Origin: Pseudolabrys sp.
Lineage (GTDB): Bacteria; Pseudomonadota; Alphaproteobacteria; Rhizobiales; Xanthobacteraceae
NCBI GenBank assembly: GCA_029255525.1
Contig: JANLJK010000200.1
Coordinates: 67 to 64,066 of the forward strand
Direction: 5' to 3'
Length of the DNA stretch: 64,000 bases
The notes beneath the pieces are model-generated. The model ran no database searches. It was not told the DNA's origin and was given only the letters and a program-made list of their open reading frames with translations. The translations under genes were made by a program, and so were the position numbers. Below are positions 1 through 16,076 of this stretch, piece by piece (the first letter of the stretch is position 1; the number at the start of each line of letters is the position of its first letter).

Positions 1-945
1 GCGCCGGATCTCGTCGCGGCCTTCCAATTGGCCGGTCTTGGTGGTGACGAGACCCAGCACCACCGTCTTGTCCTTGGGCAACAGCTTGAGCGGGTCGAAC
101 GAGCCAGCGCGCGGCGAATCGTACTCCATGAAGAAGCCGTGCACCTTGATCTTGTTGAACAGAATCTCCTGCACGGCCTCGTAACCGCCTGCGCCCATAT
201 AAGTCGACTTATAATTGCCGCGGCACATATGCATCGTGATGGTCATGTCGGATGGAATATCCGACATGGCGACGTTGATGAGGTCGGCATAAAGCTCGCC
301 AAGCTTTTCCGGATCGTCGCCGCGCGCGCGCATCTGCTGACGGTATTTCTCGTCGCACAGCATGGCGATGAACACCTCGTCGAGCTGCAGATAGCGGCAG
401 CCGGCATCGGCGAAGTCGCGCACCGCCTTGCGGTATGCCAAGCCTAGATCCTCGAACATCGCGGCGAGCTGCGGATAGACGTTCTTGTCGACAGGCGTGA
501 GGATCGGCCGGCCCCACAGCGCCGATGGCGCGGGGATCGTGATCTTCGGCGTCTCTCTGGTATGCGCGGCCACGAACTTGAAGTGCTCGATCATCGGATG
601 ATGTTTCGAGCCGATTTTGCCGGTGACCTTGGTGCCTTCGTTGCGCGTATTGACGGCGGCGAAGGCAACGCCGGTGTCCATGACGTGCTTCTCGATGCCG
701 TCGAGGCCCCACAGAAAATCGAGATGCCACCACGAACGGCGGAATTCGCCGTCCGTAATCGACTTGAGGCCGACCTCCTCCTGCTTCTTGATGACGCGCT
801 CGATCTCGCGGTCCTCGACCGCCTTCAGCGCCGCCGCGTCGATCTCACGTTTTGCGAACTTCTCGCGCGCTTCTTTCAGCGCCGCCGGACGCAAGAGGCT
901 GCCGACATGGTCGGCGCGAAACGGCGGCTTGGTGCGTTGAGACAT
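1..945 (-). CDS. Cobalamin-independent methionine synthase II family protein (catalytic-domain-only MetE-like), paralog 1; 3' end runs off the window
   Basis: Not in the ORF track (open-ended). Read manually from ATG 945: MSQRTKPPFRADHVGSLLRP...TDGEFRRSWWHLDF...LQLDEV...TMHMCRGNYKST...FMEYDS...VVLGLVTTKTG; collinear with the three upstream paralogs. Confidence 0.92.
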   Translation of the reverse strand, partial: MSQRTKPPFRADHVGSLLRPAALKEAREKFAKREIDAAALKAVEDREIERVIKKQEEVGLKSITDGEFRRSWWHLDFLWGLDGIEKHVMDTGVAFAAVNTRNEGTKVTGKIGSKHHPMIEHFKFVAAHTRETPKITIPAPSALWGRPILTPVDKNVYPQLAAMFEDLGLAYRKAVRDFADAGCRYLQLDEVFIAMLCDEKYRQQMRARGDDPEKLGELYADLINVAMSDIPSDMTITMHMCRGNYKSTYMGAGGYEAVQEILFNKIKVHGFFMEYDSPRAGSFDPLKLLPKDKTVVLGLVTTKTGQLEGRDEIRR

Positions 946-968
946 GGTCGTGCTTCTCCCTTTTCTTT

Positions 969-1090
969 CTTATCCCTCCCCTGAAAGGGGAGGGTCCGGC
1001 GCGAAGCGCCGGGGGTGGGGTCGCCTACAAATGCCCCCCACCCGGCTCGCTTCGCTCGCCACCCTCCCCCGCGAGCGGGGGAGGGATAAG
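969..1090. repeat. REP/RIME-like palindromic element (CCCTCCCC...GGGGAGGG class)
   Basis: Terminal inverted repeat CTTATCCCTCCCC / GGGGAGGGATAAG with nested hairpins (gcgaagcg / cgcttcgc). Confidence 0.85.
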
Positions 1091-1095
1091 GAAGA

Positions 1096-2205
1096 CTAGC
1101 CCCAAACCTCTTCCGCCAATTCGACGATCATACGCAGTTTGGCCCATTGCTCTTCCTCCGCCAGCACATTGCCTTCTTCCGTGGAAGCGAAGCCGCACTG
1201 CGGCGACAGACATAGCTGGTCGAGCGGCACGTACTTGGCCGCCTCGTCGATGCGACGCCGGATCTCGTCTTTCGATTCGAGCTGGCCGGTCTTCGAGGTG
1301 ACGAGCCCGAGCACGACCATCTTCCCCTTCGGCACGAAGCGCAGCGGCTCAAAGCCGCCGGCACGCTCGCTGTCGAACTCCATGAAGTAGCCGTGCACGT
1401 TGATGGCGTTGAACATCGCATCGGCCACCGGCTCGTAGCCGCCCGCGGCGATGAAGGTAGAGCGGAAGTTACCGCGGCACAGGTGCATGGTGATGGCCAT
1501 GTCCGACGGAATGTCGGCGATCGCCGTGTTGATCATACCGGCATAGGCCTCGAGCAGCGCGGCCGGGTCCTCGCCCCGGTCGCGGATCTTCTGCACCAGC
1601 TTCTCGTCGCAAAGATAAGTGAGGTTAACCTCGTCGAGCTGCAGATAGCGGCAGCCGGCGCCTGCAAAGGCGTTCACCACCTTGCGGTAGGTCGTGCCGA
1701 GATCGCGATAGAACTCGTTCATGTCGGGATAGACCGACGCCGGCACGGCCTCGCGGCCGTCGCGGAAATGCAGCGCCGACGGCGACGGGATCGTCATCTT
1801 CGGCGTCTCGCGCGTGTGCGCGGCGAGGAACTTGAAGTGCCCAATCATCGGATGATCGGTAAAATCGCCGAGCTTGCGCGCGACCCGCGTCAGCACCTGC
1901 TGCGGCTGCACGCCGCCTTGGAAACTGACCTTGCGCTGGTGCGGCACCGTCTCGATGCCGGGCAGCGCCGAGATGAAATCGGTCTGCCACGACTTCCGGC
2001 GAAATTCGCCGTCGGTGATCGACTTCAGGCCGACCGCTTCCTGCTTGCGGATCAGCGCCTCGATCTCGCGATCCTCGATCGCTGTCAATTGTTCGGCGGA
2101 GATCGCGCCGCTGGCACGGTCGGCGCGCGCCTGCTTCAGCGCGGCGGGCCGCAGCAGGCTGCCGACCTGGTCGGCACGAAAGGGCGGCCTGGTGCGTTGG
2201 GGCAT
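1096..2205 (-). CDS. Cobalamin-independent methionine synthase II family protein, paralog 2
   Basis: 369 aa; RADQVGSLLRP, TDGEFRR, Zn ligands HLC / MEFD / SPQCGF. Confidence 0.93.
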   Translation of the reverse strand: MPQRTRPPFRADQVGSLLRPAALKQARADRASGAISAEQLTAIEDREIEALIRKQEAVGLKSITDGEFRRKSWQTDFISALPGIETVPHQRKVSFQGGVQPQQVLTRVARKLGDFTDHPMIGHFKFLAAHTRETPKMTIPSPSALHFRDGREAVPASVYPDMNEFYRDLGTTYRKVVNAFAGAGCRYLQLDEVNLTYLCDEKLVQKIRDRGEDPAALLEAYAGMINTAIADIPSDMAITMHLCRGNFRSTFIAAGGYEPVADAMFNAINVHGYFMEFDSERAGGFEPLRFVPKGKMVVLGLVTSKTGQLESKDEIRRRIDEAAKYVPLDQLCLSPQCGFASTEEGNVLAEEEQWAKLRMIVELAEEVWG

Positions 2206-2221
2206 GGTTGTCTTCCTATGA

Positions 2222-2294
2222 TCCGTTCGTCCCCGCGAAAGCGGGAACCCAGTTCTTTTCCAGTTGGATTTCCGCTTTCGCGGGAATGAGCGGA
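2222..2294. repeat. REP-like palindrome (CCCGCGAAAGCGGG class)
   Basis: TCCCCGCGAAAGCGGGAACCCAG...GGATTTCCGCTTTCGCGGGAATGA; near copy at 22003-22075. Confidence 0.88.
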
Positions 2295-2302
2295 GGACTT
2301 GG

Positions 2303-3409
2303 CTATCCCCACACCTCTTCCGCCAATTCGACGATCATGCGCAGCTTGGCCCACTGCTCTTCCTCGGCCAGCACATTGCCTTCTTCCGTGGAAGCGAAGC
2401 CACATTGCGGCGACAGGCAAAGCTGCTCGAGCGGCACATATTTTGTTGCTTCGTCGATACGCCGCTTGATGTCGTCCTTCGCCTCCAACCGCCCGCTCTT
2501 GGAAGTGACCAGCCCCAGCACCACCAGCTTATTGCCCGTGAGATGGCGCAGCACATCGAAGCCACCGGCGCGGTCGGTGTCGAATTCGAGAAAATAACCG
2601 TCGATATTGACCTTGCCGAACAATTCCTCGGCGACGAATTCGTAGCCGCCGGAGGCGATGAAGGTAGAGCGAAAGTTGCCGCGGCAGGAATGCATGGTGA
2701 TCACCATGTCCTTGGGCTTGGCCTCCAGCGCCTTGTTGGTCATGCGCGTGTAGTGCCGCGGCAACGCGTCCGGATCGTCGCCGCGCTTTTTCGAGTCTTC
2801 ACGCTGCTTGGGATCGCAGATCATCGCCCAGGCTGTGTCGTCGAGTTGCAAATAGCGACACCCGGCGGCGTAGAAGGCCTTGATGGCGTTCTGGTAGGCG
2901 ATCGCGACATCGTCGAAATAGGCGTCGAGATCAGGATAGACGTCTTTGCTGATCGACTGCCGGCCCTGGCGGAAGTGCAGCGTCGAAGGCGCAGGGATCG
3001 TCATCTTCGGCGTCGCCTTGGCGTGCGCCTTGAGGAACTTGAAATGGTCGAGATGCGGATGGGTCGGCGAGAAACCGATCTTGCCGACAATGCGGACACT
3101 TTCCGCCTTGGTATCGACACCGGCGAAATGAATGCCCTCGCCGGTCTGGTAGAATTCCGCGCCATCGAGGCCCTTGTAGAAATCAAAATGCCACCAGGAG
3201 CGGCGGAATTCGCCATCGGAGGCGAGCTTCAGGCCGACCTCTTCCTGCTTCCTGATGACCTTCTCGATCTCACGATCTTCGATGTCCTTCAGCGCCGCGG
3301 CATCGATCTCGCGCTTGGCGAATTTGGCGCGCGCTTCCTTCAGCGCGGCGGGCCGCAGCAGGCTGCCGACATGGTCGGCACGAAAGGGTGGCGTGGTGCG
3401 TGAAGACAT
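2303..3409 (-). CDS. Cobalamin-independent methionine synthase II family protein, paralog 3
   Basis: Start trimmed to ATG 3409 (MSSRTTPPFRADHVG) by alignment with paralogs; HSC / LEFD / SPQCGF motifs. Confidence 0.93.
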   Translation of the reverse strand: MSSRTTPPFRADHVGSLLRPAALKEARAKFAKREIDAAALKDIEDREIEKVIRKQEEVGLKLASDGEFRRSWWHFDFYKGLDGAEFYQTGEGIHFAGVDTKAESVRIVGKIGFSPTHPHLDHFKFLKAHAKATPKMTIPAPSTLHFRQGRQSISKDVYPDLDAYFDDVAIAYQNAIKAFYAAGCRYLQLDDTAWAMICDPKQREDSKKRGDDPDALPRHYTRMTNKALEAKPKDMVITMHSCRGNFRSTFIASGGYEFVAEELFGKVNIDGYFLEFDTDRAGGFDVLRHLTGNKLVVLGLVTSKSGRLEAKDDIKRRIDEATKYVPLEQLCLSPQCGFASTEEGNVLAEEEQWAKLRMIVELAEEVWG

Positions 3410-3508
3410 TTTGGTTTCGCTCCCGGATTTCTTATTCACGGCCGATATGTTTCGGCTCGGTCTTCGTTGCCGATGGCCGGCTTGCCCGGTCATCGCATCT
3501 TACTCCGC

Positions 3509-3604
3509 TGTCATGCCCGCATAAGCGGGCATCCAGTAATCACAGGCACCGAGAGTGAATCGAGGCGCGGAGTTGACTGGGTCCCCGCTTTCGCGGGGAC
3601 GACA
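3509..3604. repeat. REP-like palindromic element
   Basis: TGTCATGCCCGCATAAGCGGGCATCCAG...CTGGGTCCCCGCTTTCGCGGGGACGACA; two hairpin arms related to 2222-2294. Confidence 0.85.
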
Positions 3605-3611
3605 CGCCGGC

Positions 3612-4721
3612 TCAGCCCCAAACTTCCTTGGAGATATCGACGATCATCTTCAGCTTGGCCCACTGCTCTTCCTCGGCCAGCACGTTGCCTTCTTCCGTGG
3701 AAGCGAAGCCGCACTGCGGCGACAGTGCAAGCTGGTCGAGCGCGACGAACTTGGTCGCCTCCTCGATGCGCTTCTTCACATCCTCTTTCTTCTCGAGGGT
3801 GCCGCTCTTCGAGGTGACGAGGCCGAGCACGACGATCTTGTTGCCCTTGGGCAGGAAGCGCAGCGGCTCGAAACCGCCGGCGCGGTCGGTGTCGTATTCA
3901 AGGAAGTAGCCGTCGTAGTTGCACTTGGCGAGCAGGCTCTCGGCCACCGGCTCGTAGCCGCCCGACGAGATGAAGGTGGAGCGGAAGTTGCCGCGGCAGA
4001 CATGCGTGGTGATCACCATGTCGGCGGGCTTGGCCTCCAGCGCCTTATTGATGCACTTGGTGTAGGTGTCCTGCAGGTGATCGACGTCGAGGCCGCGTTC
4101 GCGCGCCTTCTTGAGCTCCTCCTGCGAGCACAAATAAGCCCAGGCGGTGTCGTCGAACTGCAGATAGCGGCAGCCGGCGGCGTAGAACGCCTTGATCGCG
4201 TTCTGATAGGCGACCGCGAGATCATCGAAGATGGCGTCTCGATTGGCATAAGCCGACGCGCTGACCGAGCCCGGTTCGAGGCGGAAGTGCATCACCGTCG
4301 GCGACGGGATCGTCATCTTCGGCGTCTTGGTCGCATGCGCCTTCAGGAACTTGAAGTGCTCCAGCATCGGGTGATTGGCAGCGAAGCCGATCTTGCCGTT
4401 GACGCGCAGCACCTTCATCTTGGTCTGCATGCCCTGAAACTGGATGCCGTGGTCGGAGTCCTCGACCGTGACGCCGTCGAGCATGCCGAAGAAGTCGTAG
4501 TGCCACCAGGCGCGGCGGAATTCGCCGTCGGTAATGGCGTGCAGCCCGATCTCTTCCTGCTTCTTGATGATCTTCTCGATCTCGCGATCCTCAACTTCCT
4601 TGAGTTGAGCCGCAGTGATCTCGCCCTTCTCGCGCTTGGCGCGCGCTTCCTTCACCGGCGCGGTACGCAGGATGCTGCCGACATGATCGGCACGGAAAGG
4701 CGGTCTGGTCCTCTGAGCCAT
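3612..4721 (-). CDS. Cobalamin-independent methionine synthase II family protein, paralog 4
   Basis: 369 aa; RADHVGSILR, HVC / LEYD / SPQCGF; GGAGG SD upstream. Confidence 0.93.
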   Translation of the reverse strand: MAQRTRPPFRADHVGSILRTAPVKEARAKREKGEITAAQLKEVEDREIEKIIKKQEEIGLHAITDGEFRRAWWHYDFFGMLDGVTVEDSDHGIQFQGMQTKMKVLRVNGKIGFAANHPMLEHFKFLKAHATKTPKMTIPSPTVMHFRLEPGSVSASAYANRDAIFDDLAVAYQNAIKAFYAAGCRYLQFDDTAWAYLCSQEELKKARERGLDVDHLQDTYTKCINKALEAKPADMVITTHVCRGNFRSTFISSGGYEPVAESLLAKCNYDGYFLEYDTDRAGGFEPLRFLPKGNKIVVLGLVTSKSGTLEKKEDVKKRIEEATKFVALDQLALSPQCGFASTEEGNVLAEEEQWAKLKMIVDISKEVWG

Positions 4722-4767
4722 TTAGGTTTTCCTCCGCGTATTGCCCCCGGCCGCAACGGCGGGGATC

Positions 4768-5634
4768 TCAAGGTGGGTGAGCCATAGCACGGTCCGCGCC
4801 GTGCGTCTTGCACGCCACTTCGCATGCGTAGCGCGCCGTTTCAACGGCACCGCCGAAGGAAAAATAATGCGGGGCAATGTCGCCGAGGCCTTCGGCCGCG
4901 GCGAGCGTCTCGATGATGCGGTCGGGCCCGACATGGCCGATCAGGCCGGTCGCCGCGCCCGAGACGAGGCCGCGCAAGGACGCGCCGACGCCGCAGCGCT
5001 TCGCGTAACGGAAGAGCGCCGGCATGCTGGTCGGTCCGGCCATGCCGACCTTGACCGGCCAGTTGATGCCGCAGGCGCGCAACTGCTGCAGCCAGGCAAG
5101 TATCCGCTCGGGCGCGAAGGAGAACTGGCTCACGATATGGACCATTAGGCCCTGCGCCGTGGCCACCGCGATCTTCTGATCGAGCGCGGCCTCCAGGCGT
5201 TCAGGCGGAATGCGCGGATGACCTTCCGGATAAGCGCCGATACCGATCTCTTCGAAACCCGCTTCGCGCAGCCGGCCCTTGCGGATGACCGCCAGCGCGT
5301 CGTGGAATGGCCCGGCCGCTTCGACATCGCCGCCAATCACCAGCAGACGGCGGACATCGGCCTCGCCGCGCAAGCCCGCGAGCAGATCTTGCAAATGTTG
5401 CTCGCTCGGCAGCCGGCGCGCCGCGATGTGCACCACCGGCTCCAGCCCCGCCTTGCGCAAGGCCGCCGCGCCCTGCACGATCTCGGCGCGCGACACCGTC
5501 GGCACCGCCGTGAAATAAATCTCCGTGCCCGCCGGCAGGACCGTCGCGAGCGCGGCGATTTCGGCTGTGTCCGGCCGCGTCGCTTCGAGCGAAAACTTTC
5601 GCCCGAAGTCCGCGGCCGGTGCGAGCGCGGTCAT
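4768..5634 (-). CDS. metF: Methylenetetrahydrofolate reductase-like flavoprotein (atypical MetF subfamily)
   Basis: FSLE, PVVHIAAR, LVIGGD, GAYPEGHP, QKI, VSQFSF, VGMAGP motifs; start trimmed to ATG 5634 to avoid overlap with the upstream gene. Confidence 0.8.
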   Translation of the reverse strand: MTALAPAADFGRKFSLEATRPDTAEIAALATVLPAGTEIYFTAVPTVSRAEIVQGAAALRKAGLEPVVHIAARRLPSEQHLQDLLAGLRGEADVRRLLVIGGDVEAAGPFHDALAVIRKGRLREAGFEEIGIGAYPEGHPRIPPERLEAALDQKIAVATAQGLMVHIVSQFSFAPERILAWLQQLRACGINWPVKVGMAGPTSMPALFRYAKRCGVGASLRGLVSGAATGLIGHVGPDRIIETLAAAEGLGDIAPHYFSFGGAVETARYACEVACKTHGADRAMAHPP

Positions 5635-5650
5635 CGACCAAGTCCGGCGC

Positions 5651-7075
5651 TTAATCGCGGCGGCGGGAAATAACGAAAGACTCGTCATAGAACCACAGGC
5701 CCCCGTGCTGCTGCAGCACATCGCGCGTGGCGTCGATGTAGCGGCGATCGCTGTTGACGTCGGAGAGCCGGTCGTCCTCGACCTGCGCGACATAGATCGC
5801 CGCATTCCAGGCCGCGAGCAGCGTGGACGTACCGATCGACGAGGAGATCTCCGAGGGCAGCGTGTGCATGTCGTAACGGAACAGCGAGCGCTGATCGGAA
5901 TAGGCGTTGAAGTTGAGGTCGCGGCCGGCCACCCCCAACTCGTGCTTCACCGCCTTCAAGAGGTCATGGCGGTTATGCATGAACGGATTATCGCCCGGCC
6001 ACACCTTGTTGATGATGTCCATGCCTGGATCGTTGCCGTGCGACTGGATCGCGATCATGCGGCCACCGGGCCCGAGCGCACGCGCGAGCGGCGCCAGCAC
6101 GCGCTTGGCCTTGAATTCCAGCGAGGCACGGGCACGATAAGGCTGCGAGGCGATGACGAGGTCGTAATCGGCGACGGTACCGCCGGGCTTCGGCACGATC
6201 TGGTCAAGCAGGAATTTGTGATCGTTGCGGTACAGCACCAGGATCACCGGCCGCTCATAGACCGGGTTGCCGCTCTTCGGCGACACCCGCGCCTTCCAGC
6301 TTTCCGCCAGGAAGGGCTCCAGATCGGTGATCTGCTTCTCGAACGAATGGGCGGTATTGCCGTCCATCGCCACCTCTTTCCAGATCAAGCTGGTGGCGGC
6401 GCTGAGCGACTTTGTGGCGAGCCATGGCGCCTCGGCATAAGCGAGGTTGGTGAGCACGACGACGCTGGAGGGATGCTCGACGAAACGATCCGGCAGTTTC
6501 TGCAGCGTGAGACGCACGTCCTCCAGGCTGATCTCCTTGCCGACGATGTAGAACGGCATGGTCGGGAAGCGGTCATGCATCGAGCGCATCACGCGCGCCA
6601 GTACGGTGCCGTCGCCGACGCCGGCGTCGAACACGCGCACGGCCGGCGGCCGCGGATGGATGTTGGCGAGCTCAAGGCTGACGCGGTTGGCGACTTCCCA
6701 CTTCTCGCTGCACGTATTCACGAACAGCAGGTATTTCTGCCGGTTATCGAAAAAGCGGAAATTGCGCTGCGGATCGTCGCTGGCCTGGCCCTCGGCCACC
6801 AGCGGTGCCGGCGGCTTCACCACCGGCAGCGGGGACGGCGTGTAGCCGGACGTGGAGGAAGGATCGAACAGAACGCGCCGGCGACCCGGCGCATCTTCAT
6901 GACCGAGAGACATGAATGCCCTTATGCGTTCGAGCGTGTCGGTGGTGATACGACCGCCATTGCGAAGGCGGCTGGCGAGCTTGCCGTCGTTGACGGCGCG
7001 ACGGCCGAAGGTGGATTCGGCTAATCCGCGCTGGCGGCAGAAATCAGTGATTTCCTGGATGATTTGCTCGTTCAT
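5651..7075 (-). CDS. Cro/XRE-like HTH domain fused to a class I SAM-dependent methyltransferase-fold domain, function unknown
   Basis: N-term AESTFGRRAVNDGKLASRLRNGG, Pro/Ser linker, then VFDAGVGDG (motif I), GKEIS, YDLVIASQPY, LGPGG; AAGGA SD before ATG 7075. Confidence 0.75.
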   Translation of the reverse strand: MNEQIIQEITDFCRQRGLAESTFGRRAVNDGKLASRLRNGGRITTDTLERIRAFMSLGHEDAPGRRRVLFDPSSTSGYTPSPLPVVKPPAPLVAEGQASDDPQRNFRFFDNRQKYLLFVNTCSEKWEVANRVSLELANIHPRPPAVRVFDAGVGDGTVLARVMRSMHDRFPTMPFYIVGKEISLEDVRLTLQKLPDRFVEHPSSVVVLTNLAYAEAPWLATKSLSAATSLIWKEVAMDGNTAHSFEKQITDLEPFLAESWKARVSPKSGNPVYERPVILVLYRNDHKFLLDQIVPKPGGTVADYDLVIASQPYRARASLEFKAKRVLAPLARALGPGGRMIAIQSHGNDPGMDIINKVWPGDNPFMHNRHDLLKAVKHELGVAGRDLNFNAYSDQRSLFRYDMHTLPSEISSSIGTSTLLAAWNAAIYVAQVEDDRLSDVNSDRRYIDATRDVLQQHGGLWFYDESFVISRRRD

Positions 7076-7292
7076 AGCGCAATCCTTGGCGCGTTTCCCG
7101 TTCGGCTCTAACGGCCGTTGACGGTGCAAGCGAAACAACTCGCTCGCTTTCCGTCAACCACAAAACACATATGGGAAAGATGGGCAGAGTGGGTGGGCAG
7201 AATAAAATTACCGAAAATAACGGTATTCAAGTTGGAATGCAGTAGCTTCCCGCACCGCACGATGCTTCGCGAGATTTGTTAAATTTTTTGAA

Positions 7293-7315
7293 TGGGATAT
7301 ATCCCACTAAGTGGG
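7293..7315. promoter_or_regulatory. Overlapping palindromes, candidate operator
   Basis: TGGGATATATCCCA (7293-7306) and CCCACT-A-AGTGGG (7303-7315) in an AT-rich intergenic region. Confidence 0.45.
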
Positions 7316-7322
7316 CAAACGG

Positions 7323-8339
7323 TTACGCCGAAATTGCCGCTTCCTTCCGCGCGTCCGCCGCGAGGTCGACGCTGCGATAGGCGGTGTCGACGACGATGAC
7401 GCCGCCGACGGCGCGCGACACGCAGGCGCAAATCCTCTTGTTTTCTTCCCGCTCGTGCTCGCTGAAGAAAACGTCGCGATGATCGATCTCGCTTGAGGAC
7501 TCGAGCACGTTGAGCACGCAAAGCCCACATTCGCCACGGCGGCAATCCCACATCACATCGACGCCGGCCTCGACCAGCGCATCGAGCATGGTCTTGTTCT
7601 CGGGCACCAGCACCTCGATGCCCTGCGGCGAGGTGCGCACACGGAAAGCCTGCGGCGCGAAGCGGCCGCTGGAGCCGAACGTCTCGTAACGCAGGCCGGA
7701 GGTCTTGCGGCCGCTCTCCGCCCAGGCGCTGCGCGCAGCATCGAGCAGACGCATCGGCCCACACAGATAAAGCTGCCCCTCCGGATCGAGCCTGGCGATC
7801 TCGGATGCGAAATCGAGACGCCGCCCTTCGGAAGAGACGAATACCGCGAGCTTATCGCCGAGCTGCGCCGACAGCTCAGGCAGGAATGCAAGTTCTTCGC
7901 GCGAGCGCGCGGCATAGAGAAAGCGGAACGACATGCCGCGACGCAGCAACGTCGCCGCCATGCCAAGCATCGGCGTAATGCCGATACCGCCGGCGACCAA
8001 CAGATAGTCCGGACGACTGAATTCGAGTTCAAAATGGTTCTTCGCCGACGACACTGAGACGCGCGCGCCTTCCCGGAGCGCGTGCATCGCGCGCGAACCG
8101 CCGCGGCCCTGATCGTCGCGCTTGACGGCGATGCGATAGACGGCGCCGTCAGGCTCGCCGACGAGCGAGTATGATCGCAGGTCGGCACGGCCATCGATGA
8201 CGACGCCGATGTCGATATGGCTGCCCGGCGCCCAGACCGGCACGCCGCTGTCGGGCGCGATGTCGAACTGACGGATTGTCGGCGTCACGTCGCGGATGGC
8301 GCGGATCGTCGCCGTGGTCCAGGTAATGTCGCTGCGCAT
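7323..8339 (-). CDS. vanB: Vanillate O-demethylase oxidoreductase (PDR/VanB family)
   Basis: RSYSL, GGIGITP, C-terminal 2Fe-2S CRRGECGLC...C; near vanA. Confidence 0.9.
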   Translation of the reverse strand: MRSDITWTTATIRAIRDVTPTIRQFDIAPDSGVPVWAPGSHIDIGVVIDGRADLRSYSLVGEPDGAVYRIAVKRDDQGRGGSRAMHALREGARVSVSSAKNHFELEFSRPDYLLVAGGIGITPMLGMAATLLRRGMSFRFLYAARSREELAFLPELSAQLGDKLAVFVSSEGRRLDFASEIARLDPEGQLYLCGPMRLLDAARSAWAESGRKTSGLRYETFGSSGRFAPQAFRVRTSPQGIEVLVPENKTMLDALVEAGVDVMWDCRRGECGLCVLNVLESSSEIDHRDVFFSEHEREENKRICACVSRAVGGVIVVDTAYRSVDLAADARKEAAISA

Positions 8340-8360
8340 GATCGGTTCCTCGGCAAGCCG

Positions 8361-9119
8361 TTAGAAATCATTACGCCGGCGGATCAACACCGCGCCGGGC
8401 ACCAGCTCGCGCGTACGTTGGTTACGCAACGCGAGTTGCAGATTGCGATGGGCAAGCCGCGCATGTTCGCGCATCAGCGCTTCGGCGCGACCGCCTTCGC
8501 GATCCTCAATAGCGCGCACGACGCAACGGTGATGCTCCTGCGCGATGGTGAGGATGTACTGCGCTTCGGGCAGCATCGCCTGCACCTTGACGAAGCCGCT
8601 CTCGGACGCAAACGGCAGACTGACCACGCGATCGATCTGGCGCGCCAGCGCTGGGCTGTCGGCGGCGACAACCAGAAGCGTGTGGAATTCGCGGTTGAAG
8701 CCGACATACTCTGAAAAATCGTCGATCGTCAGCTTCGGCCGCACGACCAGTTCATCGAGTTTTTCGAGGCAAGCCTTGAGATCGGCAAGACGCGAAGCGC
8801 TGACGCCCCGCTCGGCAGCAAAGCGCGCGGCAAGACCTTCAAGTGTGCCGCGCACTTCAATGGCATCGTGAATGTCGGCTTCGGAGAATGCCTTTACGGC
8901 GAAACCGCCGGAAGGAATGCCTTCGAGCAGCCCCTCCTCTTCCAGACGCACCAGCGCCATACGGATCGGTGTCCGCGAAATGCCGAGCCGCTCAACGACC
9001 GACAGTTCGGAAATACGGTCGCCGGGCTTGAGTTCGCCGGACAGGATGAGATCGCGCAACGCCAGTTGCGCCTTCACCGTCTGCGACGACGAGACATTCT
9101 CCAGGGACGTCGCCGCCAT
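8361..9119 (-). CDS. vanR: GntR family (FCD) regulator, VanR-like
   Basis: ILSGELKPGDRISE...LGISRTPIR wHTH and FCD domain (NREFH, EHH, MREH); between vanA and vanB. Confidence 0.85.
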   Translation of the reverse strand: MAATSLENVSSSQTVKAQLALRDLILSGELKPGDRISELSVVERLGISRTPIRMALVRLEEEGLLEGIPSGGFAVKAFSEADIHDAIEVRGTLEGLAARFAAERGVSASRLADLKACLEKLDELVVRPKLTIDDFSEYVGFNREFHTLLVVAADSPALARQIDRVVSLPFASESGFVKVQAMLPEAQYILTIAQEHHRCVVRAIEDREGGRAEALMREHARLAHRNLQLALRNQRTRELVPGAVLIRRRNDF

Positions 9120-9124
9120 CGCCG

Positions 9125-10177
9125 CTACTCGGCCGCTTCGAGAATGGGCCGGCGCTCCTCCGCCGCAATCATGCGGTCGATCAGGCGGCGCGCCCACATC
9201 GCCCCGGCGTCGATGTTCAGGTTGTAAAAGACATGGCCGGGATTTTCGTCGATGGCGATCTGCTGCGCCTCGAGGATGGTTTCGTCCTCGCGGAAAATGC
9301 GGGAGACGCCCTCACGCAGTTCCGTGGTGCGGCGCTGGTCGTTGCGTTTGTGATTGCGCACGAACGCCCAGTGATAGTGACAAGTACGGTCGGTCTCCGG
9401 CGTGATTGTATTGAGCACAAAGCCATTGACGCCTTGCGAGCGATCCCCCTCCGGCGCGCCGGTGCCGGCTGGCGCAACGCCGACATCGATGGCGATGGTA
9501 CACGGCGCCTCGAAATTGATGATCTGCCAGCGATCGACCTTACCCGGCTTGCCGAGTTGGCCGGCCCAGAAGGGCGGCGGATCGATGTCGCGCATCCAGC
9601 GCGTGATCGTGGCGGTGCGGTCGGTATGCGTCGGCTCGAACGGCGCTTCCGCAACAGCACGGTTGCCGATGCTGGAGCTGTGCACGAAGGTCTCGTGCGT
9701 AAGATCCATCAGGTTGTCGATGACGAGGCGATAGTCGCATTTGACGCGAATGGTCTTGCCGTCGCCTTCCCACTCCGGGTCGTCGTTCCAATGCAGATCC
9801 GGGACCTTGGTGGGGTCGGCCAGCGCGGGATCGCCCGGCCAGACCCAGACAAAGCGATGCTTCTCAACGACCGGGAAGGTGCGTACGCAGGCCGACGGGT
9901 TGATCGTTTCCTGCGACGGCATGTGCGTGCAGCGGCCGTGCGGATCGAAAACGAGACCATGATAGCCGCACACGACCTCATCGCCTTCGAGCCGCCCCAT
10001 CGATAGCGGCAGCAGGCGATGCCAACAGGCGTCTTCCAGCGCGACGGCGCGGCCGTCGGCGCGGCGATAGAACACCATCTTTTTGTTGCAGATGACGCGC
10101 GGCAGCAACTCGCGGCGCAATTCGGCATCCCAAGTGGCGGCGTACCACGCATTGAGCGGGAAGGTGCGGTTCGGCAT
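9125..10177 (-). CDS. vanA: Vanillate O-demethylase Rieske oxygenase subunit
   Basis: FPLNAWY, Rieske CWH...CGYH, mononuclear Fe DNLMDLTHETFVH, NLNIDAG. Confidence 0.92.
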   Translation of the reverse strand: MPNRTFPLNAWYAATWDAELRRELLPRVICNKKMVFYRRADGRAVALEDACWHRLLPLSMGRLEGDEVVCGYHGLVFDPHGRCTHMPSQETINPSACVRTFPVVEKHRFVWVWPGDPALADPTKVPDLHWNDDPEWEGDGKTIRVKCDYRLVIDNLMDLTHETFVHSSSIGNRAVAEAPFEPTHTDRTATITRWMRDIDPPPFWAGQLGKPGKVDRWQIINFEAPCTIAIDVGVAPAGTGAPEGDRSQGVNGFVLNTITPETDRTCHYHWAFVRNHKRNDQRRTTELREGVSRIFREDETILEAQQIAIDENPGHVFYNLNIDAGAMWARRLIDRMIAAEERRPILEAAE

Positions 10178-10202
10178 GTTTGTTTCGTCCCTAGAGAATA
10201 CA

Positions 10203-10307
10203 ATCTGTATACAATATTATGCATCGCCCCGGCAATTGGATTATTTCTGCGGTAAAAACTCCGTTTTTAGCAATTCTGCATGCCATTCGCGTCAATATGG
10301 TATACAT
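10203..10307. promoter_or_regulatory. Two GntR-type GTATAC-centred palindromes upstream of vanA (candidate VanR operators)
   Basis: TGTATACA at 10206-10213 and GGTATACA at 10299-10306. Confidence 0.55.
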
Positions 10308-10358
10308 AAATTCCCCGGCGTGTGGGCCAGCGGGCAGCCGATATCGCGGGGCGGCAAC

Positions 10359-10388
10359 AAAAAACCCCGGCGCGCGCACCGGGGTTTT
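10359..10388 (-). terminator. Intrinsic terminator after pcaG (bidirectional shape)
   Basis: AAAACCCCGG-8 nt-CCGGGGTTTT, followed by a T-tract on the minus strand. Confidence 0.8.
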
Positions 10389-10429
10389 CCGCTTTGGGGG
10401 CTTCTCCGCTTTGTTTGCGGAGTCGCCGA

Positions 10430-11044
10430 TCAGATGTCGAAGAACACCGTCTCGTTGTCGCCCTGCACACGGATATTGAAGCGATAGACGACCGTGTCGC
10501 CCTGCACTTCCTTCTTCGCAATCAGAGTGTCGCGGCGATCCGCCGGCACCAACGACAGAATCTGATCGGTCGCATTGGCCGCCTCGTCCGCGAAGTACAG
10601 GCGGGTGTATACCTGCCGCAGCATGCCGCGCGAGTAGATGCAGAACCCGATATGCGGCGCCTGCGGCTTGCCGTTCGGGCCGGGCACCGAACCGGGCTTG
10701 ATGGTCGAGAAGCCGAATTCGCCATTCGGATTAACGGCAGAGCGGCCGAAACCCTTGAACTGCGTATTGGGTCTACGACTGTCGTAGGGGCTCGCGTAAC
10801 GCCCCTGCGCATCCGCCTGCCAGATTTCCAGCATCGCGTCGTTGATCGGCTTGCCATCGCCATCGACGATCTGACCTTCGATACGGATCTTCTCGCCGGT
10901 AGCGTCAGGCGTGATCAGATTGTCGCCGATCGTTTCCTTCCAGCTATAGGTGCCGTCAGGATCCCACTTGAGCCGACCCTTGGGGGTGAGGCCGTATGCG
11001 AAGTATGGGCCGACGGTCTGCGAGGGGGTAATGATTTCAGACAT
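10430..11044 (-). CDS. pcaG: Protocatechuate 3,4-dioxygenase alpha subunit
   Basis: TPSQTVGPY, EIWQADAQGRY, TIKPG, APHI, ETVFFDI. Confidence 0.95.
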   Translation of the reverse strand: MSEIITPSQTVGPYFAYGLTPKGRLKWDPDGTYSWKETIGDNLITPDATGEKIRIEGQIVDGDGKPINDAMLEIWQADAQGRYASPYDSRRPNTQFKGFGRSAVNPNGEFGFSTIKPGSVPGPNGKPQAPHIGFCIYSRGMLRQVYTRLYFADEAANATDQILSLVPADRRDTLIAKKEVQGDTVVYRFNIRVQGDNETVFFDI

Positions 11045-11059
11045 AAGGGCGTGTCCGTC

Positions 11060-11767
11060 TCAGTGCTTGTCGGTGTCGAGCGGGGTCGCTTCGCGGCCGC
11101 GCAACACGATGTCGAAGCGGAAGGCGAGCGCCCAGTCGGGAATAGTGTTGTCCAGATCGAAGCTGGAGACCATGCGCAGGCGCGCCTGCTCGTCCGGCAC
11201 CGAATTGAAGATCGGATCGAACGGGAACAGGTAATCGCCTGGGAAATACATCTGAGTGATCAGGCGCGACAGGAACGAGTGGCCGAACACCGAGAAGTGG
11301 ATGTGGTTCGGCCGCCAGGCGTTGTGGTGATTGCCCCACGGATAAGCGCCCGGCTTGATGGTGATGAACTTGTAGTAGCCGTTTTTGTCGGTGACGGTGC
11401 GACCGCCACCGGTGAAGTTCGGATCGAGCGGCGCCGGATGCTGGTCGACGAGGTGCACGTAGCGGCCGCAGGCATTGGCCTGCCAGATCTCGACCAACGT
11501 ATCCGGGATCGGGCGTTTGTCCTCGTCGTACACGTGACCGTGCACGATGATGCGCTCGCCGAGCGGCTCGCCCTTGCCCTGCTTGGTGAGGTCGTTGTCG
11601 CCTTCCTGGATCACATCATGGCCATAGACCGGCCCGGTGAGCTCGGACAGCGTATGCGGCATCAGGATCAGCGGCTTCGACGGCGAGCGTTTGACCGTGC
11701 TTTTGTATTCCGGAGAGAGGTGCTTGGGATAAGCACTCAGGCTCTCCCGGGGGTAAATGAGCGACAT
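11060..11767 (-). CDS. pcaH: Protocatechuate 3,4-dioxygenase beta subunit
   Basis: ELTGP, GERIIVHG, WQANACGRY, PGAYPW...WRPNHIH Fe ligands. Confidence 0.95.
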   Translation of the reverse strand: MSLIYPRESLSAYPKHLSPEYKSTVKRSPSKPLILMPHTLSELTGPVYGHDVIQEGDNDLTKQGKGEPLGERIIVHGHVYDEDKRPIPDTLVEIWQANACGRYVHLVDQHPAPLDPNFTGGGRTVTDKNGYYKFITIKPGAYPWGNHHNAWRPNHIHFSVFGHSFLSRLITQMYFPGDYLFPFDPIFNSVPDEQARLRMVSSFDLDNTIPDWALAFRFDIVLRGREATPLDTDKH

Positions 11768-11802
11768 TCTTGTTGTCCTTCGTTGCCCGTTTTCGTTTGC
11801 CT

Positions 11803-13008
11803 TTACGACAGGCGTTCCAAGGCGAGCGACGCGCCCTGGCCCACGCCCACACACATGGTGGCGATCGCACGTTTGCCGCCACGCTCTTCCAGGCCATGCG
11901 TCGCCGTCAGCACGAGACGCGCGCCCGACATGCCGAGCGGATGGCCGAGCGCGATGGCGCCGCCATGCGGATTAACGTGCTCAGCATCATCCGACAGACC
12001 GAGTTGACGCATCACGGCCAGCGACTGCGAGGCGAAGGCCTCGTTCAGCTCGATGAGATCGTAGTCGCCGATCTTATGACCAAGCCGCGCCAGCAGCTTC
12101 TGCGTCGACGGCACCGGGCCGATGCCCATGATGCGCGGCGGCACCGCCCCCGAGGCCATGCCGAGGATACGCGCGCGCGGCGTCAGGCCATGGGCCTTCA
12201 CCGCCTCTTCCGACGCGACGATGAGCGCGGCCGCGCCGTCATTGACGCCCGACGCGTTGCCGGCTGTGACTGTGCCAGGATTGCGGAACGGCGTCTTCAG
12301 CTTGGCGAGTTGATCCATCGTCGTCTCGCGCGGGTGCTCGTCCTTGTCGACCGTCACCACCTCGCCCTTACGGCCGGCGATCTCGACCGGGACGATCTCC
12401 TTGGCGAAGTAGCCGGCGGCGATCGCTTTGGCGGCGCGCTGCTGCGAGCGGAACGCGAAGGCGTCCTGATCGGCGCGGGTGACCTGGAATTCCTCGGCAA
12501 CGTTCTCGCCGGTCTCCGGCATCGAGTCGACGCCGTACTGCGCCTTCATCAGCGGATTGATGAAACGCCAGCCGATGGTGGTGTCGAATATCTCGGCCGA
12601 GCGCGAGAAGGCTTCCGTCGCCTTGCCCTGCACGAAGGGCGCGCGCGTCATCGACTCGACGCCGCCGGCGATGGCGAAGTCCATGTCGCCGGCACGGATG
12701 GCGCGGGCGGCCGCGCCGACGGCCTCGAGGCCCGAGGCGCAGAGGCGGTTGAGCGTGACACCCGGCACGCTGACCGGCAGACCGGCCAGCAGCACGGCCA
12801 TGCGCGCGACGTTGCGGTTGTCCTCACCGGCCTGGTTGGCGCAGCCATAGAAGACCTCGTCGAGCTTCGACCAGTCGACCTTCGGGTTGCGGGCCATCAA
12901 AGCCTTGATCGGAATGGCAGCAAGGTCGTCGGTGCGCACCTTGGCAAGCGACCCGGCATAACGGCCAATCGGGGTGCGAACGGCGTCGCAAATGAACACG
13001 TCACGCAT
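11803..13008 (-). CDS. pcaF: 3-oxoadipyl-CoA thiolase
   Basis: GCANQAGEDNRNVARM, NRLCASG, NEAFA, GHPLG, CVGVGQG. Confidence 0.93.
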   Translation of the reverse strand: MRDVFICDAVRTPIGRYAGSLAKVRTDDLAAIPIKALMARNPKVDWSKLDEVFYGCANQAGEDNRNVARMAVLLAGLPVSVPGVTLNRLCASGLEAVGAAARAIRAGDMDFAIAGGVESMTRAPFVQGKATEAFSRSAEIFDTTIGWRFINPLMKAQYGVDSMPETGENVAEEFQVTRADQDAFAFRSQQRAAKAIAAGYFAKEIVPVEIAGRKGEVVTVDKDEHPRETTMDQLAKLKTPFRNPGTVTAGNASGVNDGAAALIVASEEAVKAHGLTPRARILGMASGAVPPRIMGIGPVPSTQKLLARLGHKIGDYDLIELNEAFASQSLAVMRQLGLSDDAEHVNPHGGAIALGHPLGMSGARLVLTATHGLEERGGKRAIATMCVGVGQGASLALERLS

Positions 13009-13036
13009 CTGTCTTTCTTCCTTCCTTACCTTTGCC

Positions 13037-13083
13037 CGTCAGCCTGAGGTGGCTTCGCGCCGCGAAGCCCTCGAAGGATGACG
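13037..13083. repeat. Short REP-like palindrome upstream of pcaF
   Basis: CGTCAGCCTGAG-GGCTTCGCG/CGCGAAGCC-CTCGAAGGATGACG. Confidence 0.7.
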
Positions 13084-13277
13084 ATCAGAGTCATATAAGT
13101 TCCTTACAGCCGGTACGCAGCCGCACGCGCCTTATTTGTGCGTGCATACAAGTCGCGCAGCGCTCCGGCTCAGTCGCGGTGGGCGCGGGAGTTCTTCCCA
13201 GTTTCGGCCCCGTATTTACGGCCCGTCCCTGACAGGGTCAAATGCCGGGAAGGCCGCGCCACCCGCAGGTCTCAGGC

Positions 13278-14012
13278 TCATTTCGACGCTGGCTGGAATT
13301 CCAGACCATCGCCAACCTGCTCCATCGTCAGCAACCGCCGCGGGGGCAGCGTCACCCAGGTCACCTTGCTGTTATCGGTCGAGATATTCCCGGCGCTGCG
13401 CTTCATACGGCGCGTCACATAATTGATGCTTACCTCGTTGATTGTGCCTTTGAAGCGCTCGACATTGACCCTGTCATAGCCGATGAGCTCGAAATGGCCG
13501 TTTCGGAACCGGAATGTATAGGCCATGTGCCCCATGTCACCGCCGAAATAGCCGAGCGTCACCACCAGCGCGCCGCGCTTGATGTCGACCCCTCCGGCCT
13601 GGACGCCGTCCGGATCGAGAGGGTCTTGAAAGGACGGCTCCGTCGTCCGCGCGACAAATGTGTGATTTTCGAGGGCGAGATTGTAACCGCCCGCGGCATC
13701 GGCGAAGGCCACCGCAAGAATGCGCGGATTGGTATCGTAGCGCTCAGGCCCGCCGCGGCCGCGGGCGTCGATCACATTGCGCGGATTGTCGTCGCGGAGA
13801 ACCAGGGCCGCATCGTCCCGCCCGTCGCCATTCAGATCGCCGGATACTTTGCTTTCAAGCTTCCAGCCCGCAGGCACAAAGGCCTCGACGGAAGGCGCGC
13901 GCGGCGCAAGCTTCGGATAAGTCACCGGCGGGACAATCAGATCTCCGTTTTCGGCGGCCACTGGGCCGGCAACGCAGAACAACAAGAAGACCGTGGCGAC
14001 CGCGACGCGCAT
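13278..14012 (-). CDS. Exported hypothetical protein with a DxNGDG (FG-GAP-like) Ca-binding motif
   Basis: Signal peptide ending AVA/AAE; GDLNGDGRDD; YTFRF...FELIGYD. Confidence 0.7.
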   Translation of the reverse strand: MRVAVATVFLLFCVAGPVAAENGDLIVPPVTYPKLAPRAPSVEAFVPAGWKLESKVSGDLNGDGRDDAALVLRDDNPRNVIDARGRGGPERYDTNPRILAVAFADAAGGYNLALENHTFVARTTEPSFQDPLDPDGVQAGGVDIKRGALVVTLGYFGGDMGHMAYTFRFRNGHFELIGYDRVNVERFKGTINEVSINYVTRRMKRSAGNISTDNSKVTWVTLPPRRLLTMEQVGDGLEFQPASK

Positions 14013-14163
14013 TCGTTCTCCACTAGAGGGCAGCTCAGGACTTTCCGGCGCTATCTATTTGCGCCGTGAAGAATTTTCGCGCTTAAGCGCCGTATTTACG
14101 ACTGCCCATGAACTGGGTCAAATAGCGGCCCCAGTTGATTGGGGCTCCAACCAACGGACCGCC

Positions 14164-14616
14164 ATGCTCAGCGCGCAACCCATTTTCACGATCCGCTGCG
14201 AACTCGAAGCCATCCTGAACCTCGGCCAGACGCCGCTTGGGGAGCGGCGGATCATCAATATCCTCGGCGGGCCGGTGGACGGGCCGAAGCTGCAGGGCCG
14301 GGTCCTGCCCGGCGGGGCCGACTGGCAGATCATCCGCGCTGACGGCGCCGCCGACATCCAGGCTCGCTACACCATCGAGACTGACGCCGGGGCCCGTATC
14401 CTGGTCTCGAGCGAAGGGCTGCGGCACGGCCCGCCCGAGGTGATCGCGCAACTGGCGCGCGGCGAGAATGTCGATCCGGCGCTGTATTATTTTCGCACCC
14501 TCATGCGGTTCGAGACCGCCGATCCGGCAGTCGACTGGATGAACCGCATCCTGGCCATCGCGGTGGGCCAGCGCGAGCCGCAGGCGGTGCGCCTCGACGT
14601 CTACGAAGTCCTCTAG
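14164..14616 (+). CDS. DUF3237 family protein
   Basis: GERRII.I.GG, GRVLPGGADWQ, ARY..ETD.G, YYFRT..RFET. Confidence 0.85.
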   Translation: MLSAQPIFTIRCELEAILNLGQTPLGERRIINILGGPVDGPKLQGRVLPGGADWQIIRADGAADIQARYTIETDAGARILVSSEGLRHGPPEVIAQLARGENVDPALYYFRTLMRFETADPAVDWMNRILAIAVGQREPQAVRLDVYEVL

Positions 14617-14664
14617 GTCCCGCAGGGGGACCGGCCCAGGCGGGCTGCCGACGCGGGCCCACCG

Positions 14665-14715
14665 GATTGTTGTCCGAGACAACAATCTTGACGGCCTTTG
14701 TTGTCCCTGACAACA
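14665..14715. promoter_or_regulatory. Tandem operators TGTTGTC-N3-GACAACA flanking a TTGACG -35-like hexamer
   Basis: GATTGTTGTC-CGA-GACAACAATC (14665-14687) and TGTTGTC-CCT-GACAACA (14699-14715). Confidence 0.7.
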
Positions 14716-14777
14716 TTTGCCCCGCGGTCGACAACAAACGCTTCAACGCGCCGCCTTCAGTCCTCGGGAGGGACCCC

Positions 14778-15989
14778 ATGCAGAAACCACTTCAATTTGC
14801 TGCGCTTATGGCCGTGCTGATCGCGGCGCCGGCGCTCGCCGAGCAGAACGGCACGCTTCGCATCGGCGTCATGAACGACATGTCGAGCGTCTATGCCGAC
14901 TTCCAGGGCCCGGGCTCGGTGCTCGCCGCCCAACTGGCGATCGAGGACTACGCCAAGCAATCCAAGCGCAAGGTCGAAGTCACCTCGGCCGACCACCAGA
15001 ACAAACCCGACGTCGGTGCCGGCATTGCCCGGCGCTGGTTCGACGTCGAAGGCGTCGACATGGTCATCGACCTGCCGAACTCGGCGGTCGCCCTCGCGGT
15101 GTCGGACATCGCGCGCGAGAAGAACAAGGTCGTGATCGGCTCGGGCGCCGGCACCTCGCTGCTCACGGGCGCCAAATGCTCGCCCAATTTCGTACATTGG
15201 ACCTACGATACCTGGTCGTTCGGCCATGGCTCCGCGCGCGGCGTGCTGGCGCAGGGCGGCAAGACCTGGTTCTTCATCACCGCCGATTATGCCTTCGGCC
15301 ACGACCTCGAGAAGCAGGCCAGCGATGAAGTCAACGCCAGCGGCGGCAAGGTGCTCGGTGTGGTGCGCCATCCGCTCGGCACCAACGACTTCTCATCTTA
15401 TCTGCTGCAGGCGCAGGCCTCGAAGGCCGACGTAGTGGCCCTGGCCAATGCCGGCGGCGACACGGTCAACAGCATCAAGCAGGCGGCGGACTTCAAGATC
15501 GGCGACAAGCAGAAGATCGTCGCGCTGATCTTCGACCTGCAGAGCGTGCCGGCGGTCGGCCTGCAGACCGCGCAGGGCCTGACGGCGATCAATGCCTGGT
15601 ACTGGGACCTCAACGACGACACCCGCGCTTTCGCCAAGCGTTTCGCCGCACGGCATCCGAAGAAGATGTATCCCAACCACATGCAGGCCGGCGTCTATTC
15701 GGGCGTGCTGCATTACCTCAAGGCGGTCGACAAGGTCGGTGCGCCCGCCGACGGCAAGGCCGTGGTCGATGCCATGAAGGCGATGCCGACCGACGATCCG
15801 CTGTACGGCAAGGGCACTATCCGCGCCGACGGCCGCAAGATCCACCCGCTCTATCTGCTGCAGGTGAAGTCGCCGGCGGAATCGAAGAGCGAATGGGACG
15901 CCTTCAAGATCTCCGGCACGATCCCGGCCGACAAGGCCTTCCGCCCGCTGGCCGACGGCGGCTGCCCGCTGGTGAAGGCTGCGAACTGA
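14778..15989 (+). CDS. ABC transporter substrate-binding protein (LivJ/HAAT-like, aromatic-binding clade)
   Basis: Signal peptide, IGVMNDMS, ADHQNKPDVG, FITADYAFG; GGAGG SD; no permease or ATPase adjacent. Confidence 0.88.
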   Translation: MQKPLQFAALMAVLIAAPALAEQNGTLRIGVMNDMSSVYADFQGPGSVLAAQLAIEDYAKQSKRKVEVTSADHQNKPDVGAGIARRWFDVEGVDMVIDLPNSAVALAVSDIAREKNKVVIGSGAGTSLLTGAKCSPNFVHWTYDTWSFGHGSARGVLAQGGKTWFFITADYAFGHDLEKQASDEVNASGGKVLGVVRHPLGTNDFSSYLLQAQASKADVVALANAGGDTVNSIKQAADFKIGDKQKIVALIFDLQSVPAVGLQTAQGLTAINAWYWDLNDDTRAFAKRFAARHPKKMYPNHMQAGVYSGVLHYLKAVDKVGAPADGKAVVDAMKAMPTDDPLYGKGTIRADGRKIHPLYLLQVKSPAESKSEWDAFKISGTIPADKAFRPLADGGCPLVKAAN

Positions 15990-16076
15990 CCGCAGTTACT
16001 TAAGGCACTACCCGGCCACATCTTCTCGCCGCAGCCCGGGCCATCCGGGCCGCGGCACCAACTCAGGAGTATTTGA

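Follow-up and report, generated by a model that had tools for sequence, protein, structure and literature searches.

A predicted HTH-methyltransferase-fold protein as a likely second controller of methyl-group supply in Xanthobacteraceae

A 474-aa protein encoded in the 64,000-nucleotide stretch of Pseudolabrys sp. DNA analysed here (the window) combines an N-terminal helix-turn-helix (HTH) head, a long linker and a methyltransferase-fold body. Judged from its sequence and from the promoters around it, it is probably a transcription factor that regulates the SAM cycle in response to a ligand and whose targets would be its own operon, metK and sahR-metF-metH. Because a TGGG[AC]/[TG]CCCA box recurs at its own, the metK and the sahR promoters almost only where the gene is present, the protein is likely a second, undescribed controller of cellular methyl-group supply.

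The initial annotation had described a Cro-like HTH fused to a methyltransferase fold with an NPPY-like motif, linked to methyl-cycle genes, and had proposed either a regulator with an architecture unlike the ArsR-type SahR or a DNA-tethered N-methyltransferase. The HTH, the fold, the methyl-cycle link and the regulator branch are retained here, whereas the NPPY motif and the DNA-tethered enzyme are not. It had not included that more than half of the diverse homologs are HTH-less and that SahR is encoded in the same genome.

Domain structure and distribution of the protein

The feature is a real gene of a conserved family (Table 1). Since all 8000 scored candidate relatives were found at E<=1e-3 and matches were present in 39 of 401 alphaproteobacterial genomes, a chance reading frame was dismissed. 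At 50% identity the family comprised 313 representatives with E<=1e-30. Within the host family, the Xanthobacteraceae, the gene was found in 41 of 60 genomes, two weak HTH-only matches being left out of the count. The nearest named relatives are Pseudolabrys records (82-89% identity), and Bll5946 of B. diazoefficiens USDA 110 falls in the 90% cluster of one relative. Searches of Pfam, NCBIfam and PDB sequences with the single protein and with a 102-row alignment gave no significant match, the ESM Atlas returned clusters without names and methyltransferase leads all below 0.9, and in the open-access literature no paper was found that names bll5946 or describes its architecture or box.

Table 1. 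Features of the gene, its upstream region and its downstream neighbours in the window.
Feature	Position	Strand	Remark
Gene for HTH-linker-methyltransferase-fold protein	5651..7075	-	474 aa, ATG start; relatives cluster with Bll5946
XRE/Cro-type four-helix HTH, residues 1-56	6908..7075	-	phrog_7669 E 5.5e-7; Foldseek top matches all XRE/Cro-type
Disordered Pro-rich linker, residues 61-109	6749..6895	-	low-confidence stretch in AlphaFold2
Class I SAM-methyltransferase fold with N-terminal capping helix and lid, HNMT/SABATH-like	5651..6757	-	VIA, Foldseek
Motif I DAGVGDG, predicted SAM-binding loop	6608..6628	-	intact
Motif II KEIS	6527..6538	-	E181 kept in 58/60 homologs
Strand-4 motif YDLVIASQPY	6137..6166	-	aligns with SahR FDVVILHQVL, not NPPY
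TTGAC, predicted -35 box, kept in relatives	7153..7157	-	
Proximal TGGG[AC]/CCCA box cluster, predicted operator	7172..7200	.	rank 2 of 1026 genome clusters
Distal palindrome TGGGATATATCCCA and third box, predicted operator	7293..7316	.	rank 1 of 1026
Type-4-like MTHFR, 17 bp downstream, likely co-transcribed	4768..5634	-	S6MTHFR 7XG9 E 6e-55
MetE-like core methionine synthase 1 (PRK06520 family)	3612..4721	-	
MetE-like core methionine synthase 2	2303..3409	-	
MetE-like core methionine synthase 3	1096..2205	-	
MetE-like core methionine synthase 4, cut by window end	1..945	-	

The 474-aa protein was modelled with AlphaFold2 at a mean pLDDT of 89.5, and the motifs quoted earlier were all located, with the N-domain stretch at residues 20-40 (6956-7018), DAGVGDG at 150-156, KEIS at 180-183, YDLVIASQPY at 304-313 and LGPGG at 334-338. 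The head resolved as an XRE/Cro-type HTH and the body as a methyltransferase fold. The N-domain consists of four helices (2-16, 20-28, 33-38 and 45-56). In Foldseek the isolated head matched C.Esp1396I, HipB, SinR and phage repressors with TM scores of 0.6-0.8 and probabilities of up to 0.98 (PDB) and 1.0 (viral library), none of these reaching E<=0.001. No Pfam model passed for the head, the best being HTH_26 at E 0.03, and weak HTH_26 matches were obtained in 6 of 29 cases. Together with the phrog_7669 match, these results uphold the Cro-like HTH. Small stand-alone proteins related to the head were seen in four phage records. The lambda-repressor-like four-helix fold is thus common to the head and to XRE/Cro-C1 proteins such as C.Esp1396I, HipB, SinR and the Cro-like phrog_7669, but the HTH described here is tethered to an enzyme-fold body, through a linker of ∼28-65 aa in the 14 homologs measured.

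The best structural match of the body was histamine N-methyltransferase (1jqd; Z 16.9, rmsd 4.3, 261 residues aligned in VIA, with which Foldseek agrees), followed in VIA by a mycobacterial fatty-acid O-methyltransferase (5f2k; 16.7), TmtA (5egp; 16.6) and xanthosine methyltransferase (16.5), with OxaG and SAMT also among the matches, down to Z 16.1. Like HNMT, SABATH, TmtA/GtmA and OxaG enzymes, the body carries a capping helix and a lid over a small-molecule pocket on the class I fold; over model residues 103-474 the comparisons covered 241-278 residues at Z 16.1-16.9 and rmsd 3.4-4.8. The identity is 8-12%, and the body differs from these enzymes in being fused in some lineages to an HTH or to an alpha/beta-hydrolase. 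The Rossmann-like body with its motif I and acidic motif II agrees with the proposed methyltransferase fold.

In amino-methyltransferases the motif after strand 4 is [DNS]-P-P-[YFW]. In the present family the motif reads S-Q-P-[YFW], and SQP is near-invariant. As 58 of 60 homologs have Gln at the second position and FDVVILHQVLH is the aligned stretch of SahR, SQPY is an ordinary post-strand-4 pocket motif and not the NPPY-like motif for which it had been taken. E124, K125 and Q311 were found in 60, 59 and 58 of 60 homologs, respectively. The pocket of HNMT uses Glu28, Gln143 and Asn283 according to PMC9867436; judging from aligned ranges and position, these plausibly correspond to E124, Q311 and D/N464. 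Two divergent HTH-bearing members (P0135, P0139) carry a degenerate motif I and strand-4 motif (e.g. EANLGEG, SHLY), and this branch is possibly sensor-only or inactive.

The HTH is not a constant part of the family. Among 41 diverse loci, the window included, 19 encode a form with and 22 a form without HTH, and in a quick tree with midpoint rooting the deep branches are mostly HTH-less. A single origin of the HTH fusion was rejected (p-AU 0.005; quick tree of 56 rows, from which 5 long or unclear rows had been dropped). The pocket residues are conserved equally in both groups, between whose bodies the median identity is 54%. Ten of 31 longer relatives (P0461-P0467 and P0469-P0471; 659-664 aa) carry an N-terminal alpha/beta-hydrolase in front of an intact methyltransferase body, as read in four of the ten; two of these four have GHS[FL]G as nucleophile motif, the other two GHGFG. 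Such a protein could possibly form a pair that makes and breaks a methyl ester. In L136 and L137 an upstream open frame gives the false appearance of a long fusion. In two small genomes (L155, L156) an HTH-less homolog lies near an aldehyde dehydrogenase; L155 also has what we take to be phosphodiesterase-family and class V aminotransferase genes, and its context resembles aminoethylphosphonate catabolism.

Boxes at the own, metK and sahR promoters

At least four TGGG[AC]/[TG]CCCA half-sites were present in the 300 bp upstream of the gene in 14 of 19 HTH-bearing and in 0 of 20 HTH-less diverse homologs, in a count from which L144 and L156 were dropped and for which the motifs had been chosen after inspection of the same sequences. 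Two HTH-bearing loci examined later (L372 and L373) also carried box clusters, and with a box matrix made without the host genome the two top clusters of 1026 both lay upstream of the gene. The commonest half-site geometries were inverted with an offset of 10, everted with 13 and tandem with 9-13. Boxes were missing from some members, i.e. G722, L254 and L263, the latter two being gene-metK operons. The predicted promoter was missed by an E. coli-type promoter scan.

Perfect TGGG[AC]N4[TG]CCCA palindromes are not enriched genome-wide (12 versus 8.6 expected). Three of the 12 are clearly intergenic, before the gene itself, before sahR-metF-metH and before a second MTHFR; C55, C341 and C393 appear to sit in coding sequence and were not counted as intergenic. 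The palindrome at the second MTHFR was perfect in the host genome only, among 24 loci, and no boxes were seen upstream of 13 stand-alone type-4-like MTHFR genes in 13 genomes of other families. At about 8 of the 24 host-family loci (L182, L183, L185-L190) a conserved TGTCCAG[AG]AAG element precedes the second MTHFR type, possibly the site of another regulator.

At the host metK, tandem boxes abut the -35 and no SahR box is present. This pattern occurs at 4 of 5484 TTGAC sites of the host genome, metK being one of the four. In 26 host-family genomes the gene lies apart from metK, and in 22 of them tandem boxes abut the TTGAC of metK; the same arrangement was seen in 1 of 18 genomes in which a search for the gene gave no match. 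These counts exclude a second metK copy as well as G715, whose metK start lies off the contig, and G072, for which metK was not found. A canonical sahR-metF-metH operon that has a box of its own is also present in the host genome. At this operon TGGG[AC]N4[TG]CCCA was found in 14 of 22 host-family genomes with the gene versus 0 of 17 without, compared with two matches in total over seven other spacings. The sahR palindrome often adjoins the start codon, and it ranked 176 in the genome-wide matrix scan. As at the own promoter, the patterns counted at metK and sahR had been settled with the same sequences in view. The Fisher p-values of 2e-7 (metK) and 2e-5 (sahR) overstate the case because related genomes are not independent; the well-supported independent pairs, four for metK and two for sahR, are too few for significance and nearly all point in the same direction. 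On the metK tree, gene presence was not clustered (12 changes versus 14.1 when shuffled).

Individual genomes depart from this pattern. In G681 (92% complete) metK boxes are present, yet the gene was not found even by profile search, and in G678, G688 and G697 the gene itself is preceded by boxes while metK is not. In 15 further host-family genomes the gene lies immediately before metK; SahR was found in none of these 15, and in this group boxes also occur between promoter and start. Upstream of metK in L253 (G716) stands TTGTGGTTGAC, as in the -35 context of the gene's promoter. Boxes and the gene are both missing, which suggests that the gene was lost from a former gene-metK operon. Outside the host family the metK promoters showed no general enrichment (on average 1.29 half-sites for 17 copies, compared with 1.0 for 21), with box clusters recognized by eye in four. 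This small difference, the lack of conservation of the second-MTHFR site and the 13 MTHFR genes without clusters argue against a wide regulon.

SahR and SamR consist of an ArsR-family HTH and a SAM-methyltransferase-like domain (Leyn et al., 2014, PMC4239095). The 474-aa protein shares with them the combination of an HTH and a class I SAM-methyltransferase-like body with an alignable post-strand-4 motif; control of the SAM cycle (metK, metF, metH, sahR) and autoregulation are likewise common features, though for the 474-aa protein these are predicted only. The differences are considerable. The winged HTH model PF01022 matches the host SahR and not the 474-aa protein with its XRE/Cro HTH, which furthermore has a long disordered linker and a larger HNMT/SABATH-like body; the sequence match between body and SahR covered 41 columns only, at a probability of 43%. 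The predicted box TGGG[AC]N4[TG]CCCA also differs from ATAAAG-N4-CTTTAT of SahR.

The latter box is found at sahR and ahcY and, by its position, is presumably that of SahR. Its 20-bp palindrome is not present at the gene's own promoter, which carries TGGG/CCCA boxes, and with the pattern used it was found at 0 of 59 metK copies in the host family. The 474-aa protein coexists with SahR and appears to control sahR. As SahR is present in the same genome, the protein adds to SahR, and a replacement of SahR was rejected for the host genome. It is concluded that the protein resembles SahR in its proposed way of working and yet is not a SahR member, but a variant architecture. The regulator reading of the initial annotation, with an architecture unlike SahR, gains weight from a box that tracks both the HTH and the gene.

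Gene neighbourhood and alternative readings

Of 80 close loci, 76 have the MTHFR as the next gene downstream, 67 have a MetE-like gene following and 16 a ligM-like gene nearby. Among the 41 diverse loci, 19 contain an MTHFR, which belongs to one of three subfamilies, 8 contain metK, 5 ahcY, 6 a MetE-like gene and 1 ligM. At least one of MTHFR, metK, ahcY, MetE-like or ligM-like genes was present in the fetched flank of 27 of the 41, a count for which some queries were derived from these loci themselves. The link to methyl-cycle genes noticed in the window thus holds in the family.

The downstream MTHFR keeps the equivalents of Pro49, Arg78, Cys219 and Phe269 of type 4 MTHFR, whereas Leu48 is replaced by Val and Pro268 by Ser, so that its reaction direction is not assured. 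Type 4 MTHFR is described as encoded in a ligM-metF-ligH operon and as marked by three motifs, Leu48-Pro49, Cys219 and Pro268-Phe269 (PMC11868366). LigM was not found in the host assembly (85% complete).

The four tandem MetE-like core synthases (window 1-4721) have no folate-binding domains, the others being 54-67% identical to the first, and 11 such loci were counted in the genome. Palindromic repeats between them (950-1090, 2208-2290 and 3520-3600) recur elsewhere in the genome, e.g. before ahcY. On the other side of the gene lie vanB-vanR(GntR)-vanA and, further upstream, pcaG, pcaH and a thiolase (7323-10177 and 10430-13008), so that genes for vanillate demethylation and protocatechuate cleavage adjoin the methyl-cycle operon. 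The vanAB linkage was seen only in the window when the 80 close and 41 diverse loci were compared. Rfam revealed no riboswitch in window 1-16000.

The boxes might belong to another factor, e.g. MraZ, or reflect lineage noise, in which case the protein would be a local autoregulator only. MraZ-type CCCA repeats have the same half-site in the host family, the mraZ promoter came 9th in the matrix scan of the host genome, and trans sites are weak outside the host family, with few independent pairs. However, MraZ is of an unrelated family (PF02381), and in host-family mraZ promoters (L163:4040-4110, L376-L404) three to four TCCCA repeats stand in strict 10-bp direct spacing downstream of the -35, whether the gene is present or not (29 of 30 loci), which differs from the inverted sahR site. 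MraZ was not found in 26 of 60 host-family genomes. Because 17 of the 19 genomes without the gene, in which metK boxes hardly occur, do encode MraZ, and because no MraZ was found in 7 of 22 genomes with metK boxes, MraZ does not explain the boxes and was rejected as their binder at metK and sahR; purely local autoregulation is accordingly considered unlikely. Far less probable still is a DNA-tethered amino-methyltransferase with N6-adenine, N4-cytosine or HemK-like activity on DNA or a bound protein. SQPY does sit after strand 4, where NPPY is located, and S-P-P-Y is found in N4-cytosine enzymes. Against this stand the Gln at position 2, the alignment with the HQVLH segment of SahR and the HTH-less majority of the diverse homologs. 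The closest folds listed are small-molecule enzymes with capping helix and lid, and neither the 50 rows from VIA nor those listed by Foldseek included a DNA N6-adenine methyltransferase or HemK entry. Moreover, no restriction or mobile-element context was seen around the gene, and 72,556 plasmids contained no match to the protein. This branch of the initial annotation was therefore considered unsupported.

The main rival concerns the body. In a bifunctional trigger enzyme, the body would be an active small-molecule methyltransferase, ancestrally free-standing and joined by the HTH later, whose catalytic state or substrate sets DNA binding; a role as methyl-overflow valve or as carboxyl, N- or S-methyltransferase could be imagined. 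Such a protein is compatible with the proposed regulon, and it is a serious contender, though the odds are somewhat against it. Its nearest folds are active enzymes, and the HTH-less and hydrolase-fused forms imply that the body has a function without need of DNA binding. Because 22 of 41 diverse homologs have no HTH (9 of these 22 adjoin an MTHFR) and an alpha/beta-hydrolase takes its place in others, the body may have remained an enzyme. Because the body is as conserved in HTH-less forms, with E124, K125 and Q311 near-invariant, it need not be a sensor. However, the neighbours of homologs point to no consistent substrate, the nucleophile Ser of the hydrolase is Gly in two of the four fusions read, and the conserved pocket fits a binding-only sensor equally well. 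Alternatively, the body could be an obligate SAM-sensing partner subunit of the adjoining MTHFR, comparable to the regulatory domain of eukaryotic MTHFR, with the HTH as an accessory. The three adjoining MTHFR subfamilies fit this arrangement, and so does the distribution of type-4-like MTHFR, which occurs in 19 of the 38 gene-bearing genomes and in 55 of the 362 others. However, 55 of 74 type-4-like MTHFRs occur without the gene, and the apparent MTHFR fusions that were read seem to be frameshift read-throughs, because their ends diverge at the conserved last strand; the MetE fusions read likewise resemble frameshift artefacts. An obligate partnership is considered quite improbable.

Proposed control of methyl-group supply

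The ligand-controlled transcription factor remains the preferred explanation, and its parts differ in strength. That the protein binds DNA is very probable, and control of metK and sahR within the host family can be assumed with good confidence from the distribution of the boxes. At all three targets, the own operon, metK and sahR-metF-metH, the XRE/Cro HTH would bind the TGGG[AC]/[TG]CCCA boxes. Somewhat more probable than its opposite is that the protein dimerizes through the body, that the long linker spreads the two HTHs over half-sites and that SAM or SAH is the signal; SAM or SAH in the body would then likely set DNA binding, and inverted or tandem half-sites of variable spacing could be read.

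The sign of control is the most speculative part and is proposed only tentatively. Boxes just upstream of a -35 are the geometry of activators, as in lambda CI and C-proteins. The boxes at metK and at the own promoter lie immediately upstream of the -35 and would thus favour activation, while the palindrome near the sahR start would favour repression. Upon a methyl surplus, SAM synthesis and methyl-THF oxidation might then be favoured over methyl-THF synthesis. The sign is uncertain because the gene-metK group also has boxes between promoter and start, fitting repression.

In published Tn-seq data for B. diazoefficiens (PMC8225791, Table S4), bll5946 shows a strong depletion of insertions, as do metK and ahcY; its central part received 2, 2, 0, 1 and 5 insertions in the five samples, with z from -1.5 to -5.4. 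The gene was not called essential. Polarity on metK-ahcY could be the cause of this depletion.

A bolder picture, which is rather doubtful, is that of a new family in which a phage Cro-like HTH was grafted on a still-active small-molecule methyltransferase, forming a tier above SahR and the missing SAM-cycle regulator of Bradyrhizobium-type rhizobia, with a linker that reads either half-site orientation. Table S1 of Leyn et al. lists no MetJ, MetR, SahR or SamR for B. japonicum USDA 110 and Bradyrhizobium BTAi1, and likewise none for R. palustris CGA009 and N. winogradskyi (PMC4239095). Bll5946 is a candidate SAM-synthesis regulator for those bacteria, for which both a box and predicted target promoters can be named. 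In addition, the forms that are HTH-less or fused to a hydrolase suggest that a methyltransferase family with links to folate one-carbon metabolism is widespread. If the proposed function is true, the protein would represent a second, independent invention of an HTH joined to a methyltransferase fold for methyl-cycle control and, in the host family, a regulator that appears to control SahR itself.
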